From an uncultured Verrucomicrobiae bacterium (GTDB lineage: Bacteria > Verrucomicrobiota > Verrucomicrobiia > Verrucomicrobiales > Akkermansiaceae): a stretch of DNA of 64,000 bases. The translations under genes and the position numbers were made by a program. Position 1 is the first letter of the stretch, and every line of letters begins with the position of its first letter. The stretch is from positions 4,756 through 68,755 of the forward strand of contig CALGOH010000223.1 in assembly GCA_937957985.1 (NCBI GenBank), given 5' to 3'. Of this stretch, positions 14,285 through 42,273 are shown piece after piece. The notes below the pieces were generated by a model. That model made no database searches, was not told where the DNA came from, and saw nothing but the letters and a program-made list of their open reading frames with translations.

Positions 14285-14381
14285 GGTCTTATGAATGGGA
14301 ATAGTTGCAGCCAACCGCATTGGGCGTGCCAACCGGTTTCCATGCCAAGTTTCGGATCGAAGCTTCTCGTGTGGTGTCCTT

Positions 14382-14934: not shown

Positions 14935-15024
14935 TGGCGGACAGGGAGGGATTCGAACCCTCGGTACTCTTGCGAGCACACTCGCTTTCCAGGCGAGCCC
15001 ATTCGACCACTCTGGCACCTGCCC
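14935..15024 (-). tRNA. tRNA-Ser (anticodon GGA)
   Basis: The reverse complement is GGGCAGGTGCCAGAGTGGTCGAATGGGCTCGCCTGGAAAGCGAGTGTGCTCGCAAGAGTACCGAGGGTTCGAATCCCTCCCTGTCCGCCA. It has a 7-bp acceptor stem with a G3-U70 wobble, anticodon loop CTGGAAA, a long variable arm, T-loop GGTTCGAATCC and an encoded CCA. Confidence 0.92.
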
Positions 15025-25910: not shown

Positions 25911-25920
25911 AGGAAAAGAG

Positions 25921-26310
25921 CGGCCGCTCCCCTGTAAGCCGGATTCTGTTCCCCCCGCCTTTGCGGGGTTCGACGATCATTTCTCTATGCGACTAATACC
26001 CGGGGATTCGACGGGCGGGCGACCCTTCCCCTGTTCTGTCTTGCACCGCGCGGGGTTTGCCGTGCCACCGTCGTTGCCTCCGGCGCGGTGGGCTCTTACC
26101 CCACCTTTTCACCCTTACCCAGCCCCACTTTTGCGATGAAGGTCTTCATCGCAAAAGTGGGGCTGGGCGGTTTGTTTTCTGCTGCACTTTCCGTCCGGGC
26201 TCCTCGCGGAGACCCGTCCCCCGTTTTCACGAGGCACGCTGCCCTGTGGTGTCCGGACTTTCCTCTGCCGGATTCCGAAGAAGCCGACAGCGATCGCCCG
26301 GGGAGCGGCG
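25921..26310 (-). ncRNA. rnpB: RNase P RNA, bacterial type A
   Basis: The reverse strand contains GAGGAAAGTCCGGAC, GCAGCAGAAAACAAACCGCC, GGTAAGGGTGAAAAGGTGGGGTAAGAGCCCACCG, GGCAAACCCCGCGCGGTGCAAGACAGAACAGGGGAAGG and ACAGAATCCGGCTTACAGG. P1 pairing is GCCGCTCCCC (5') with GGGGAGCGGC (3'). The ends are approximate. Confidence 0.9.
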
Positions 26311-31335: not shown

Positions 31336-32148
31336 TTACTCCGGAAGCTTCAGGTCCATGCCGACCCGGAGGTGGCGCGGATTGTCGATGCCGTTGAGGG
31401 ACATGAGCTTGTCGACCGAGGTGCCGTGCTTCTGCGCGATCGCCCAGAAGGTGTCGCCGGGCTGGACCTTGTAGTCTCCGGACGAGCCGGCGGCGGCGGG
31501 AATCTCGCGGCCGGACTGGCGGGCGTCGGCCTGGCGGGCGGCGTCGGTCACCACCAGGCCCGCGGCGGGCGGGACGACGGGATCCGCACGGACCTCGGGT
31601 GCCGGCTCGACATGGACCGGCTGCCCGCCGTTCCGCAGCTCGGCGATTTCCGGAGGCTCCACGGCGGTGATGGTCCTCGGTGGGATGCGCAGGTAGCGGC
31701 CCTGGCGCAGCGGGATGTTGTCGTTGGCCGAGCGCAGTTCGGTCTCATCGATGCCGAACCGGGAGGCGATCCCTTCATAGGTATCGCCGGTGCCGACGGT
31801 GTAGAGCGAGTCACCGGAGCGGATCTTCGGCAGGTCGGACTCCTCGGCGGCCGGTGCGGCGGCGGCGCGGTCCGGCGTCGGGGTGGCGGTTTCCATGTTG
31901 GCGGACTCGTCTCCTTCCAGCCAATGGCTGTGGAAGAAGATGCCGGCGATCGCCACCACGTGGATGGCGAGGATGACGATCAGGGCGCGGGCGACGCCGA
32001 GGTTCGGCACGTCTCCTTCGAAGTCCGCGGCGGAGGCGGTGGTGGCGGCGCGATGGCGCTTCTTCTTCCTCGCGACATTCACGAAGAGCGTGGTCAGCCC
32101 CCCTTTGCGGGCGGGACGGCGTTTCACGGTCAGGCGTTGGTTTCTCAT
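31336..32148 (-). CDS. Bitopic LysM-domain protein (two LysM repeats) embedded in the dcw cluster
   Basis: From ATG 32148: a basic N-terminus (MRNQRLTVKRRPARKGG...KKKRHR), TM segment ALIVILAIHVVAIAGIFF, a P/A/E-rich linker, and two LysM-like units (YTVGTGDTYEGIASRFG...LRSAN and YKVQPGDTFWAIAQKHGTSVDKLMSLNGI). Confidence 0.75.
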   Translation of the reverse strand: MRNQRLTVKRRPARKGGLTTLFVNVARKKKRHRAATTASAADFEGDVPNLGVARALIVILAIHVVAIAGIFFHSHWLEGDESANMETATPTPDRAAAAPAAEESDLPKIRSGDSLYTVGTGDTYEGIASRFGIDETELRSANDNIPLRQGRYLRIPPRTITAVEPPEIAELRNGGQPVHVEPAPEVRADPVVPPAAGLVVTDAARQADARQSGREIPAAAGSSGDYKVQPGDTFWAIAQKHGTSVDKLMSLNGIDNPRHLRVGMDLKLPE

Positions 32149-39595: not shown

Positions 39596-39823
39596 CTAGT
39601 AGAGGTCGAGCGCGCGCTCCTTGCCGATTTCGATCATCTGGATGTCCAACCGGTGTTCCTCGATGCGCTCGCGCGTCTTGGCGATCTCGCGCTCGGTCTT
39701 GATCTGGCCGTTGCGGTAAATCGCGTGCAGGGCACCGCCGACGGTGCCGACGACGACCATCAGGATCAGTGCGACGAAGGCGGCGGTGTGGGATCTCGGT
39801 TCGGAGGAACGTCGGCGGTTCAT
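39596..39823 (-). CDS. ftsL: FtsL-like small bitopic cell-division protein (75 aa as read)
   Basis: From ATG 39823: MNRRRSSEPRSHTAAFVALILMVVVGTVGGALHAIY, followed by a coiled-coil-like QIKTEREIAKTRERIEEHRLDIQMIEIGKE. It sits between rsmH and ftsI, with an ATGA overlap with the rsmH stop. Confidence 0.65.
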   Translation of the reverse strand: MNRRRSSEPRSHTAAFVALILMVVVGTVGGALHAIYRNGQIKTEREIAKTRERIEEHRLDIQMIEIGKERALDLY

Positions 39824-40740
39824 GGTCGGGGAGTGTCGGGGTCCAGAAGCTCGGCGACCCGCAGCTTTGCGCTGCGGGCCCGCGGGTTGACTCGGATCTC
39901 TGCGTCGCTCGGTGCGATCGCCTTGCGCTGTGGAAGTCGGAATGCCCAGCGGGGGTTGGGGCGTGGCTCGGGCCACTCGGGCCGGTCGATCCATGGACGC
40001 GACCGGTCCTGCATGAACTGTTTGACCATCCGGTCCTCCAGGCTGTGGAAGGTGATCACCAGCAGCCGTCCGCCCGGCTTCAGCAGATCGACGGAGCGTT
40101 CGAGCGCCCGCTCCAGCGAGCCCAGCTCGTCATTCACCGCGATCCGGATCGCCTGGAAAGTCCGCGTCGCCGGATGGGTGCGCCCGCGGCGGCCGATCCG
40201 CTCCTCGATGCAGCCGGCGAGTTCGAGCGTCGTCTCGAAAGGGCGCTCGTGGCGTCGCTCGACGATGACCGAGACGATCCGCCGCGCCTGGGGCTCCTCG
40301 CCGTATTCGCGCAGGATGCGGACGAGTTCGTTCTCGGGCCACTCGTTCACGACGGTGGCGGCGGTCAGTTCGACGGACGGTCCCATGCGCATGTCGAGCG
40401 GGCCGTCCTTCTGAAACGAGAATCCCCGCTCGGGCGCATCGAGCTGGCGAGACGAGACCCCGAGGTCCAGGAGCAGGCCGTCGGCCCGCTCTCCCCCCTG
40501 GACCCCGGGGTTGTCTCGGAAATAGTCGGCGAAGTTGCCCTGCCAGGTGCGGAAGCGGTCGCCGAACCGCGCCAGCCGTTCGCGGGCGTGCGCCAGCGCC
40601 TCGGGGTCGCGGTCGATTCCCAGCACCGTCGCGCCGGCATCCAGGAAACGCTCGCTGTGTCCGCCGCCGCCGAGGGTGGCATCGACGATGAAGCGACCCG
40701 GTCCGGCCGCCATCCACTCGCAGGTTTCCTCCGGCAGCAC
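39820..40740 (-). CDS. rsmH: 16S rRNA (cytosine1402-N4)-methyltransferase RsmH/MraW; start codon unresolved
   Basis: YHVSVLPEE...DATLGGGGHSERFL...LLDLGVSSRQLD..RGFSF..DGPLDMRM...THPATRTFQAIRIAVNDEL...ITFHSLEDRMVKQF. The 5' coordinate is the first in-frame canonical start (GTG 40740). That start lies inside the conserved N-terminus, and the frame remains open upstream through the repeat array. Confidence 0.85.
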   Translation of the reverse strand: MLPEETCEWMAAGPGRFIVDATLGGGGHSERFLDAGATVLGIDRDPEALAHARERLARFGDRFRTWQGNFADYFRDNPGVQGGERADGLLLDLGVSSRQLDAPERGFSFQKDGPLDMRMGPSVELTAATVVNEWPENELVRILREYGEEPQARRIVSVIVERRHERPFETTLELAGCIEERIGRRGRTHPATRTFQAIRIAVNDELGSLERALERSVDLLKPGGRLLVITFHSLEDRMVKQFMQDRSRPWIDRPEWPEPRPNPRWAFRLPQRKAIAPSDAEIRVNPRARSAKLRVAELLDPDTPRP

Positions 40741-40765
40741 GGAGACATGGTAGCCTCCGCCATCT

Positions 40766-41295
40766 GAAAGCCCCGACCGAGGCTCCGCAAACCAGCCATG
40801 GAAACCGGAGCGCGCGGTCGTCTGATGTCCCCCGCGCGCCGCTGTCCCGATTGGCGCGTGGGGTCCGTTGTTGAAATCGATTGCCGCGCCCCGTGCCGTA
40901 AACCAGCCATGGAAACCGGCACGGGGACGCGGGTTGATCGGCGAAAGGAGCGCTGTCCCGATTTGCTCCCTCCGCTCAGCCTGGGAAAGCCCCGGTCGCC
41001 GCCCCGCAAACCAGCCATGGAAACCGGAGCGCGCGGTCGTCTGATGTCCCCCGCGCGCCGCTGTCCCGATTGGCGCGTGGGGTCCGTTGTTGAAATCGAT
41101 TGCCGCGCCCCGTGCCGTAAACCAGCCATGGAAACCGGCACGGGGACGCGGGTTGATCGGCGAAAGGAGCGCTGTCCCGATTTGCTCCCTCCGCTCAGCC
41201 TGGAAAGCCAACGGTCGCCGCCCCGCAAACCAGCCATGGAAACCGGGGCGGACAACCGTCTGATACGCGGCGCGGAGCACTGTCCCGATGGCTCC
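40766..41295. repeat. Tandem repeat array (219-bp unit, about 2.4 copies) between mraZ and rsmH
   Basis: 40789-41007 and 41008-41226 are near-identical. The 20-mer AAACCAGCCATGGAAACCGG occurs at 40789, 40900, 41008, 41119 and 41227. Confidence 0.9.
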
Positions 41296-41432
41296 GGACC
41301 GCATGAAAAATACGCCCAACCCCGACACCGGCGCGATCGCGGCGGTGGGTGCCACCGGATGCGTGGATCCGGATGCCGGGGTTGGAAGGGCGAACAGCAT
41401 GTTGTCGTTCGTTTGGGTGAAATCTTCTTGGT

Positions 41433-41885
41433 TCAGAGGACGCCGAGCTCGTCGTCGTCGATGTTCATGTCGGCCTCCACGATGCGCCGGAAGGTGTCCT
41501 CCGAGCAGAGGATGTAGTAGCTGTCGCGACCGGCGACCTTGACCGGCCCGTCCGCCTTGAGGCCGATGTCCTCGGCCCAGTCCTTGGGCACGCTCAGCTT
41601 GCCCTGGCTGCTGATGGTCGCCTCCTTCGAGGTCATCCGCAGCGCGCCCGCCAGCTTGGTCTTCTTCGCCGGCGTCAGGTTCGACTCGGCGATCTGGCGG
41701 AACTTGTCCTCGAAGGCCGCGACACTGAAGATCTTGATGACCTGCTCCTCGTGCTCCTTCGACACCTGGAGCCGCACCGGCTCGTCCCCGTCGGGACGGA
41801 AAGCCACCGGGATGGAAACCCGATACTTCGGGTCCATCTTGTAGTCGTAGTGACTCTCGTAAACTTTGCCTTCGGCGGACATCAC
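41433..41885 (-). CDS. mraZ: Transcriptional regulator MraZ
   Basis: 150 aa. YDYKMDPKYRVSIPVAFR and a second half QGKLSVPKDWAEDIGL give the duplicated SpoVT/AbrB-like MraZ pattern. It is the first gene of the dcw cluster. Confidence 0.88.
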   Translation of the reverse strand: MMSAEGKVYESHYDYKMDPKYRVSIPVAFRPDGDEPVRLQVSKEHEEQVIKIFSVAAFEDKFRQIAESNLTPAKKTKLAGALRMTSKEATISSQGKLSVPKDWAEDIGLKADGPVKVAGRDSYYILCSEDTFRRIVEADMNIDDDELGVL

Positions 41886-41915
41886 AGAACGTCAGTGCGC
41901 TGACGTGCCTTGAAC

Positions 41916-41931
41916 TACACCAAAGTACACC
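41916..41931 (-). promoter_or_regulatory. Candidate operator: two GGTGTA direct repeats at 10-bp spacing just upstream of mraZ
   Basis: The plus strand reads TACACCAAAGTACACC, which is GGTGTACTTTGGTGTA on the mraZ strand, 30-45 nt upstream of the mraZ ATG. It sits in an AT-rich divergent promoter region. MraZ proteins are known to bind short direct repeats at this spacing, but the consensus for this clade is unknown. Confidence 0.25.
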
Positions 41932-42273
41932 CAAATGCGCAAGAGAAATTGAAGGTTTCTTAGTTTTCTCCAAAAACCATTCATAATCAGCAGTTTATGA
42001 AGTGTATTCGGGTGTCCTTGAGGGAGATTCTTTGAAGTTTTCCGTGCTTTCCGAGGTGCTTTTTTGGAATTTTTCGAGGGTCGGGGGTGGATTTTCCGAG
42101 GTCGGCCGATGCTCCGGTGTACTTTTTTTACGGATCGGTGCATGGAGGTGTACGGCACCCGCAGGCAGTGGTTGGCGCCGTGAGCCGGACGCAACCGGGT
42201 CAGCCGGGGCGACCCTTCGAATTCGCGAGAATTCGCGGAGAGTTGACGAGGGTTCGCGGAGCACGGGGAAGCG

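Follow-up and report, generated by a model that had tools for sequence, protein, structure and literature searches.

A tandem array of co-varying RNA hairpins between mraZ and the methyltransferase domain of rsmH in Haloferula-like Verrucomicrobiales

Introduction

CsrB and RsmZ are stand-alone non-coding RNAs whose A(N)GGA loops bind CsrA. Among other described hairpin systems, the Rickettsia palindromic elements (RPEs) are hairpin-forming units of ~100-150 nt that lie in frame in protein-coding genes and add peptide segments (PMC10969869), and the actinobacterial mraW RNA motif (Rfam RF01746) is a transcribed 5' untranslated region (UTR) in Corynebacterium glutamicum (PMC3890552, PMC4046766). 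Here we describe a tandem array of two-hairpin units (hairpins H2 and H1) located between mraZ and the methyltransferase domain of rsmH (mraW), in the division and cell-wall (dcw) operon of a Haloferula-like member of the Verrucomicrobiales. The array was found in a 64,000-nt stretch of contig CALGOH010000223.1, called the window in this text; positions are those of the window, and the features of the locus lie on its minus strand unless stated otherwise.

The array resembles the mraW RNA motif in being a conserved structured RNA directly upstream of the mraW/rsmH methyltransferase domain of the dcw operon. However, it belongs to a different phylum, it is composed of 2-8 tandem two-hairpin modules where the mraW RNA is one motif, and it lies inside a reading frame that is kept open, downstream of a conserved start codon. 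No RF01746 match was obtained with cmscan over positions 40600-42100, either at the gathering threshold or at E-values up to 10. With RPEs, MITEs (miniature transposable elements with inverted repeats) and repetitive extragenic palindromic (REP) sequences the array shares palindromic, hairpin-forming units that stand in frame within an open reading frame (ORF). RPEs are dispersed over many unrelated genes, whereas the array is tandem and confined to one orthologous site, with loops that are conserved and stems that co-vary from genus to genus; neither the 64-kb window nor the 1.13 Mb of related loci yielded another copy. A likeness also exists to intergenic REPs and bacterial interspersed mosaic elements (BIMEs), GC-rich hairpins between or within operon cistrons that could protect the mRNA and uncouple flanking genes, but REPs are genome-wide families in untranslated spacers, while the array is a single-locus element with specific conserved loops and is probably translated. 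Finally, the array recalls CsrB/RsmZ-type RNAs in its numerous hairpins in tandem, where variable stems carry a short conserved loop motif, and the H2 loop (YCGGGACAG) contains a GGGA that loosely resembles CsrA sites; the H1 loop (UGGCUGGUU) has no GGA. In contrast to CsrB and RsmZ, which have a known partner, the array hairpins lie inside an ORF and carry two different loop motifs, and no match to a CsrB/RsmZ family of Rfam was found at E-values up to 10. The array is a member of none of these three groups, the mraW motif, the RPEs and the CsrB/RsmZ-type RNAs, and our literature searches, which covered rsmH and mraZ in Verrucomicrobia, gave no description of it.

Repeat structure and hairpins of the array

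The mraZ gene ends at 41433 and the conserved Tyr-His-Val-Ser-Val-Leu of RsmH starts at 40752, which leaves an apparent mraZ-rsmH gap of ~680 bp. We identified five units of ~104 nt in this gap (40768-41308). With Tandem Repeats Finder, 2.2 copies of a repeat of period 219 were detected at 40766-41250 (96% matches), periods of 111 and 108 being nested in it, and a repeat search gave five subunit copies spaced 111/108/111/108. A first-pass annotation of the window, made from the letters alone, had described a near-perfect 219-bp tandem repeat, and this was recovered, with 99% identity between the two full 219-nt units. The 20-mer that it reported (AAACCAGCCATGGAAACCGG) occurs exactly five times, at 40789, 40900, 41008, 41119 and 41227 (0.01 occurrences expected from shuffles), with the 111/108 spacing that it gave. 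It also placed an inverted repeat around the 20-mer in alternate subunits; the inverted repeat is indeed present, but it flanks the 20-mer in all five.

The 701-nt stretch was predicted to fold as a regular row of hairpins, with a minimum free energy (MFE) of -360.7 kcal/mol and a z-score of -3.65. The 648 nt from AUG 41400 to the methyltransferase domain comprise eleven sense-strand hairpins: a hairpin that we call P0, followed by five tandem H2-H1 modules. P0 (41316..41385; MFE -47.7 kcal/mol) begins 15 nt after the ATG, inside the ORF; RNAalifold gave it a 16-bp consensus helix in which 13 of the 16 pairs show compensatory changes, and its arms were also recovered in the repeat search. In every unit the H2 hairpin is followed by the H1 hairpin ~49-55 nt on; the folding of one subunit, a check proposed in the first-pass annotation, gives H2 plus H1 for each unit. 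We scored the units with R1, a covariance model of the whole unit whose E-values are rough. Unit 1 (41206..41308) reached 92.6 bits (E 9e-18; MFE -56.2 kcal/mol), unit 2 (41098..41201) 97.3 bits (-56.1 kcal/mol), and unit 3 (40987..41089) 77.2 bits (-47.0 kcal/mol). Unit 4 (40879..40982), near-identical to unit 2 like the 219-nt units to which they belong, also reached 97.3 bits, and unit 5 (40768..40870), the last before the methyltransferase domain, 81.1 bits (-50.9 kcal/mol).

Covariation was found in both hairpins. For H1, a plain MAFFT alignment of 44 copies showed 13 of 16 pairs changed on both sides, with 83% of cells paired against 33-50% when the partners were slid, and none of 500 shuffles reached the observed value. 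The stems of H2 are wholly different between copies and always close the same loop: cognate arms formed 9.1 pairs on average and swapped arms 5.5. RNAalifold detected no structure in an ungapped H2 alignment, in which loop lengths differ by 1-2 nt; per-hairpin stem finding and covariance-model alignment were used. Over the whole unit, 22 of 25 pairs were compensatory in the model-fitted alignment of 132 distinct sequences, and 92.8% of cells were paired (36-46% in slid controls). H2 stems contained 59 G-U pairs and 17 A-C mismatches, an excess which indicates that the sense-strand RNA is the folding form. The stretch is a strongly co-varying structured RNA.

The loops behave in the opposite way to the stems. 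Among the recognised units, 266 H1 loops were exactly GGCTGGTT and nine had one base different, and the H1 and H2 loops together are near-invariant in more than 340 units from more than 80 genomes and contigs. RsmH itself is only ~65% identical between the lineages that carry the array, and over that distance the stems have been fully turned over. Constant loops between lineages with replaced stems point to long-term purifying selection on the loops and imply that they are specifically recognised.

These data also bear on the idea that the element acts as DNA, either as operators for MraZ or another DNA-binding protein or as cruciform-forming repeats, which we consider highly improbable. MraZ proteins bind direct-repeat arrays, and the array is located directly downstream of mraZ. 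However, co-varying stems with conserved loops are the signature of single-stranded hairpins, only the sense strand folds well, as the 59 to 17 ratio shows, and the probable MraZ boxes are of a GTGTA type that is unrelated to either loop. Terminators and promoters were searched for between 39700 and 42400 and none was detected in the array, where no GC-rich stem with a U tract was found. Kissing between the H1 and H2 loops, judged by eye, would involve at most 4 bp (GCUG/CAGC) that are not conserved.

The rsmH reading frame through the array

The first-pass annotation proposed that the array was inserted between mraZ and an rsmH gene without a canonical start. It correctly reported that the array is open in the rsmH frame, which our ORF reading confirmed, and that no in-frame start stands between the array and the conserved N-terminus, given that GTG 40740 falls after the conserved His codon (40747-40749). 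The in-frame canonical starts are ATG 41400, GTG 41355, GTG 41328, TTG 41319, ATG 41304, GTG 41280 and TTG 41211, and then none until GTG 40740. The first of them, which that annotation overlooked, is an ATG (41398..41400) that sits 33 nt after the mraZ stop, is in frame with rsmH and opens a peptide beginning M-L-F-A-L-P-T-P; it is invariant in 42 of 42 aligned loci with variable flanks, and we take it as the likely rsmH start. The array would thus lie within the 5' part of the rsmH ORF rather than between the two genes. In nearly all of 52 metagenome loci, which were picked by nucleotide pattern alone and had both flanks present, the first in-frame ATG stands 7-20 codons past the mraZ stop (2 codons in one locus). 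The whole ORF inferred in the window (39820..41400) has 526 codons plus the stop and no in-frame stop, with residues 1-216 coming from P0 and the array, and the homologous ORF is intact in relatives.

The comparison with relatives supports a reading frame that has been kept open. From the ATG to the methyltransferase domain the ORF is intact in 61 of 61 loci, namely the first nine loci and the 52 metagenome loci. In the first nine, only the rsmH frame is stop-free throughout, and the other five frames contain stops in most loci. In the metagenome set the rsmH frame is stop-free in 49 of the 52 (mean 0.08 stops per locus), and in the remaining three every stop lies upstream of the conserved ATG. 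The other two sense frames are stop-free in 5 and 3 of the 52 loci (2.9 and 3.1 stops per locus), and the three antisense frames in 7, 3 and 0 (4.0, 2.9 and 4.2 stops per locus). Of 185 H1-H1 spacings, 181 are multiples of three, H1 keeps its phase in 274 of 276 cases, and all the gaps in the alignment of the window with Haloferula are multiples of three. In the window alone, one further sense frame and one of the antisense frames are largely open as well; openness there means little and is significant only by comparison with relatives. The simplest reading of these patterns would be a translation start at ATG 41400 and translation running through all eleven hairpins.

An untranslated structured 5' UTR leader, comparable to the actinobacterial mraW motif (PMC3890552) and followed by an rsmH start at GTG 40740 or at a non-canonical codon by the Tyr-His codons, appears to us very unlikely. 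It would agree with the gene call in the window and with that of the Prokaryotic Genome Annotation Pipeline (PGAP) in Haloferula sp. A504, both of which start at GTG and give 306 aa, and with a base composition that is flat across codon positions. Yet such a leader would have no reason to remain stop-free in exactly the rsmH frame in all 61 loci, with indels of 3n, or to keep the upstream ATG invariant. Moreover, the Tyr-His codons upstream of the GTG are conserved and vary synonymously (TAC/TAT, CAT/CAC), and the conserved His aligns with the start of the solved RsmH structures: 1wg8, 1m6y and 3tka align with the window RsmH from this residue, and 1wg8 and 1m6y begin only 5-9 residues before it (His at about residue 6-10). 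A canonical start (ATG, GTG or TTG) near the Tyr-His codons is absent in ~5 of 9 loci, including the window and Haloferula sp. A504. A frameshift or sequencing error that hides an out-of-frame ATG near 40764 as the true start was rejected, as Haloferula sp. A504 independently has no start there.

Two further observations concern possible starts inside the array. In most arrays outside Haloferula an in-frame UUG is present in the H1 loop (GGC UGG UUG), 14-20 codons before the Tyr-His codons, and Haloferula has UUU at that position. In many metagenome loci the last H1 is fixed 55 nt before the rsmH body.

Distribution of the array and divergence of its copies

The organism of the window is Haloferula-like: in a protein search with the long ORF, its RsmH was 89% identical to that of Haloferula sp. 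A504. We examined the DNA of eight relatives (Haloferula sp. A504, H. helveola, H. luteola and five metagenome-assembled genomes, MAGs), and the array was present between mraZ and rsmH in all eight, with diverged copies. A nucleotide pattern spanning two units matched 91 stretches of metagenome contigs, 83 of them at mraZ-rsmH or on contigs cut there; the remaining eight were discarded as unrelated repeats or chance matches. The comparison of mraZ-rsmH spacers that the first-pass annotation called for places the array in Haloferula, Luteolibacter and 83 metagenome contigs. With R1 we recovered 345 units in 91 loci, and copy number varies from 2 to 8 units per locus. The array motifs were absent from 80 loci of more distant relatives (RsmH 51-60% identical; Rubritalea, Akkermansia, Roseibacillus, Chthoniobacter and others), a set in which one locus with 91% RsmH identity (L009) is cut by a contig end upstream of the match. 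These loci were used as negative controls and added no genome with the array.

Searches for copies elsewhere gave the same picture. R1 with filters off detected exactly five units in the window, at 77-97 bits, and its next best match had 12 bits. An nhmmer search over 1.13 Mb of related loci gave 362 matches, all of them in arrays except two marginal ones. No copy of the 20-mer was found outside the array in the 64-kb window with up to 3 mismatches, apart from a chance-grade match at 14333-14352 (plus strand; CCGGTTTCCATGCCAAGTTT). This one agrees with the H1-loop 20-mer in 17 of 20 positions, lacks both a flanking inverted repeat and a covariance-model match, and was set aside as probably due to chance. 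No comparable hairpin accompanies the other short matches to the loop motifs in the window, except for one 7-bp stem at 31397. The element was thus found at the mraZ-rsmH locus only and in the Haloferula/Luteolibacter clade only, over the window, the 1.13 Mb of loci and the metagenome contigs, a survey of loci and contigs and not of whole genomes.

Of the explanations offered in the first-pass annotation, this leaves no support for a REP-type element, a genome-wide version of which it saw as a possible refutation: the 20-mer, R1 and nhmmer find nothing but the array in the window and related loci. An assembly artefact, through mis-joined or over-collapsed repeats, is scarcely credible. The 99% identity of the 219-bp copies does make the exact copy number less certain here than elsewhere. 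However, Haloferula sp. A504 also has five units with diverged copies in a spacer of equal length (677 nt), and dozens of independent assemblies, including those of other species, show a matching architecture.

Units of the same genome are 99% identical in the window and 85-89% identical in relatives. Between each 219-nt unit of the window and either unit of Haloferula sp. A504, identity is no more than 84-89% (comparison with L001 and L002), and the units of H. helveola are nearer to one another (89%) than to units of other genomes. Copies that are more alike within than between genomes suggest concerted evolution or gene conversion inside the arrays. Homogenised copies, together with palindromic in-frame units and a copy number of 2-8 per locus, would also suit a selfish palindromic repeat, RPE-like or REP/MITE-like, that has expanded in tandem and is tolerated, its frame being kept to spare rsmH; in-frame palindromic elements of this kind are known in Rickettsia (PMC10969869). 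We regard this explanation as quite unlikely, as the array occurs at a single locus and its loops stay near-invariant across lineages in which the stems have been turned over and RsmH is ~65% identical. In addition, we noticed neither a transposase nor terminal repeats at the ends of the array, although no systematic search for them was made.

Coding signature and the encoded peptide

We compared the codon positions of the array with those of the rsmH body. The GC fraction at positions 1/2/3 is 0.68/0.65/0.70 in the array or leader and 0.74/0.49/0.85 in the rsmH body. Likewise, substitution rates between the window and Haloferula sp. A504 are 0.11/0.12/0.11 and 0.06/0.08/0.31, respectively, so that the codon positions of the array are constrained alike and more tightly than the synonymous sites of rsmH. 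No 3-periodicity of column entropy was observed over 132 units (1.45/1.32/1.27 in the linkers). Of the H2 loops, 18 out of 257 are read one base out of phase, which gives S-G-Q instead of L-G-T from identical nucleotides, and the phase is back before the next H1. A sub-lineage (L006:3112, 3322 and 3532, and 15 metagenome sites) has the H2 loop CUCGGGACAGCA read as S-G-Q-H instead of L-G-T-A, with the H2-H1 spacing at 50 nt in place of 49.

The 216 encoded residues have an isoelectric point (pI) of 12.0 and are rich in G, A, R and P, a composition that is expected from GC-rich stems. They are predicted to be disordered: AlphaFold2 gave residues 1-214 a predicted local distance difference test (pLDDT) score of 24-35 with no secondary structure, and no Pfam match was found for the extension. 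Together with the flat rates and entropy across codon positions, this does not correspond to a folded protein repeat domain. The long RsmH proteins of relatives carry GFHGWL, ASGWLSAR and LGT motifs in the repeat region, behind an N-terminus MLF[AT]xPT. About half of the best 120 protein matches are 450-590-aa RsmH proteins with 94-100% query coverage; by annotating such proteins, gene callers have hidden the array.

A functional repeat-extended RsmH, for example with an arginine- and aromatic-rich disordered tail that aids pre-30S or RNA binding and with hairpins of secondary importance, seems to us rather unlikely. The intact frame in 61 of 61 loci, the unit lengths in multiples of three and the very basic, G/A/R/P-rich extension speak in its favour, as does an in-frame, non-repetitive, protein-like N-terminal ORF at the corresponding place in Akkermansia and UBA7331. 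On the other hand, no codon-position signature was found in composition, substitutions or column entropy, with third positions equally constrained; identical loop nucleotides are read in two frames; the compensatory stem substitutions alter residues; and the extension has neither a confident AlphaFold2 fold nor a Pfam family. A role of the basic tail through its bulk composition is possible. The first-pass annotation had offered a repeat-extended RsmH and a structured RNA or REP-type element as alternatives. The former holds in that the array is inside the rsmH frame and open in every relative, but not as a protein-type substitution pattern; the latter holds for the strongly co-varying RNA. 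Each of the two, repeat-extended RsmH and structured RNA, is thus half right and they hold together, since the RNA co-varies while the frame is kept open.

A proposed regulatory role within the coding region

The array would be a structured cis-acting mRNA element, unusual in lying within an ORF and being translated with it. We consider it probable, from comparative sequence evidence, that it serves as a cis-regulatory RNA platform inside the ORF, translated through, which tunes rsmH and the division genes coupled to it; the regulatory function is our inference. Ribosomes would start at AUG 41400 and translate through the hairpins, producing RsmH with a basic disordered N-terminal tail, and selection would act on the RNA fold, the loop sequences and the open frame, not on the peptide sequence. 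The open frame would give ribosomes access to the catalytic domain and to the translationally coupled genes ftsL and ftsI. If, as we propose, the start codon and P0 go back to the ancestor of the order, the stretch between P0 and the catalytic domain can expand only in frame, as rsmH would otherwise be lost. The next gene would be lost as well, because its ATG overlaps the rsmH stop, and the need to spare both would explain the preservation of the frame without a role for the peptide.

A trans-acting factor, be it a protein or an RNA, might dock on the repeated loops, and the stable hairpins might double as barriers. A loop factor and hairpin stability would then determine, relative to mraZ, how fast rsmH and the downstream division genes are translated and how stable their mRNA is, and multiplication of tandem units would tune the dose; the repetition itself suggests dose or cooperativity. 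MraZ and RsmH act antagonistically in E. coli. A bolder version, which we put forward only tentatively, is a riboregulator inside the coding region, in which ribosome transit into rsmH and ftsL-ftsI, and with it the fate of the mRNA, is gated by a loop-docked factor, and in which the order has evolved a multi-copy solution twice, the second time in Roseibacillus with tandem P0-type hairpins upstream of the ORF. The mraZ-rsmH junction would in that case be a hot spot of RNA-based control of cell division.

Several points weigh against a regulatory platform of this kind. Translation through the array is deduced from comparative sequence only, internal initiation at the H1-loop UUG is conceivable in most arrays outside Haloferula, and an ORF with eleven hairpins of about -20 to -48 kcal/mol in it is heavily burdened. 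The 132-unit alignment was model-fitted, which inflates pairing, although the H1 test used a plain MAFFT alignment, and the frame-shifted H2 loops may derive from only a few ancestral events. The loop-binding partner, protein or RNA, is putative. No related Rfam family was found in the window (gathering threshold and E up to 10) or in four related loci (E up to 0.1), and the loop motifs are unlike the probable MraZ boxes (GTGTA type, 12 loci). Ribosomal RNA was compared with the loops as well, using E. coli 16S and 23S and not verrucomicrobial rRNA, and the matches were not above chance: the longest sense, complementary and G-U duplex matches were no better than those of shuffled motifs (all p >= 0.09), so that mimicry of or pairing with rRNA is not supported. 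On visual inspection, the unit 1 H1 hairpin (41232-41254) looks similar to 16S positions 1399-1416 (CCGCCC-N6-CCAUGG); the CCAUGG is found only in the Haloferula and Luteolibacter-like type (L001-L004, L008).

The array would represent an undescribed RNA motif that is widespread, has very strong covariation and is absent from Rfam 15. It would be under a double constraint, selected as a folded RNA and for an unbroken frame, while its peptide sequence is seemingly immaterial. This warns against reading long N-terminal extensions as protein domains and against confining motif searches to intergenic DNA. The array stands at the head of the division and cell-wall operon, and identification of a loop partner would make the regulation of the verrucomicrobial operon testable.

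Other mraZ-rsmH junctions in the order

P0 and the start codon are also present outside the array-bearing clade. Four array-less relatives (L014, L021, L027 and L050) share the invariant AUG and a P0 hairpin at +15, in frame with rsmH, and the RsmH of the order generally seems to have an N-terminal extension of ~50-60 aa that is encoded by structured RNA.

A different tandem array was found at the mraZ-rsmH junction of Roseibacillus and a related MAG (L017:1809-2451, L039:1812-2451 and L034:558-1050). It has 3-4 copies of a ~150-170-nt unit, composed of three 8-nt ACUGGAAC/ACUGGAUA repeats, an (A/C)UG and a ~110-nt hairpin with a co-varying basal stem and a conserved internal CUGCCUUGCC. The upstream copies contain stops, and only in the last copy is the ATG in frame with rsmH. 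This array had no Rfam match, and by its sequence it looks like a tandem duplication of a leader, AUG and P0 module.

In an Akkermansia muciniphila MAG (L065:1940-2495) and in UBA7331 (L035:1831-2497), the mraZ-rsmH gaps of 554 and 666 nt are an uninterrupted ORF in the rsmH frame. This ORF encodes a non-repetitive, protein-like N-terminal region of 180-220 aa that is conserved at the amino-acid level between genomes of 64% and 42% GC, and no Pfam family matched it.

Gene layout and other features of the window

The upstream gene, mraZ (41433..41885, 150 aa), is syntenic in all related loci. The Pfam MraZ/MazE match of its product is weak (E 8e-4, below the gathering score), and within the clade MraZ is 29-69% identical to the window protein, against 61-79% for RsmH. 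From the mraZ stop to the likely rsmH start codon runs a short leader (41401..41432) whose C/A-rich character is kept across loci. Reading the window sequence, we saw no Shine-Dalgarno-like sequence in it; a fold prediction places a small putative hairpin there with the AUG in its loop.

The methyltransferase domain of RsmH, from Y-H-V-S-V-L to the last sense codon (39823..40752), shows the codon-position signature described above, aligns with solved structures and has an AlphaFold2 pLDDT of 85-97. It belongs to the RsmH/MraW 16S rRNA m4C1402 methyltransferases (PF01795), having homologues with PF01795 and an E-value of 1e-72 to 1wg8. Membership was defined by Methyltransf_5 from H-x-[PS]-V-L, via the GGGGHS loop that binds S-adenosylmethionine (SAM), to the C-terminal NPRARSAKLR. 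The rsmH stop and the start of the next, ftsL-like gene overlap in an ATGA (39820..39823), which implies translational coupling between them. In all loci rsmH is followed by genes for a small membrane protein, a penicillin-binding protein (PBP) and a Mur ligase.

Just upstream of mraZ (41915-41933, minus strand) we found two or three GTGTA(C)-type boxes ~10-11 nt apart, behind a conserved cttgc element. Boxes of this type occur at the corresponding position in L001-L008, L017, L021 and L065, and they are probably, from sequence, the MraZ operator of the order. Finally, the only Rfam matches of the window at gathering threshold were the bacterial RNase P RNA class A (25919-26309, minus strand; 218 bits) and one tRNA (14938-15024, minus strand).

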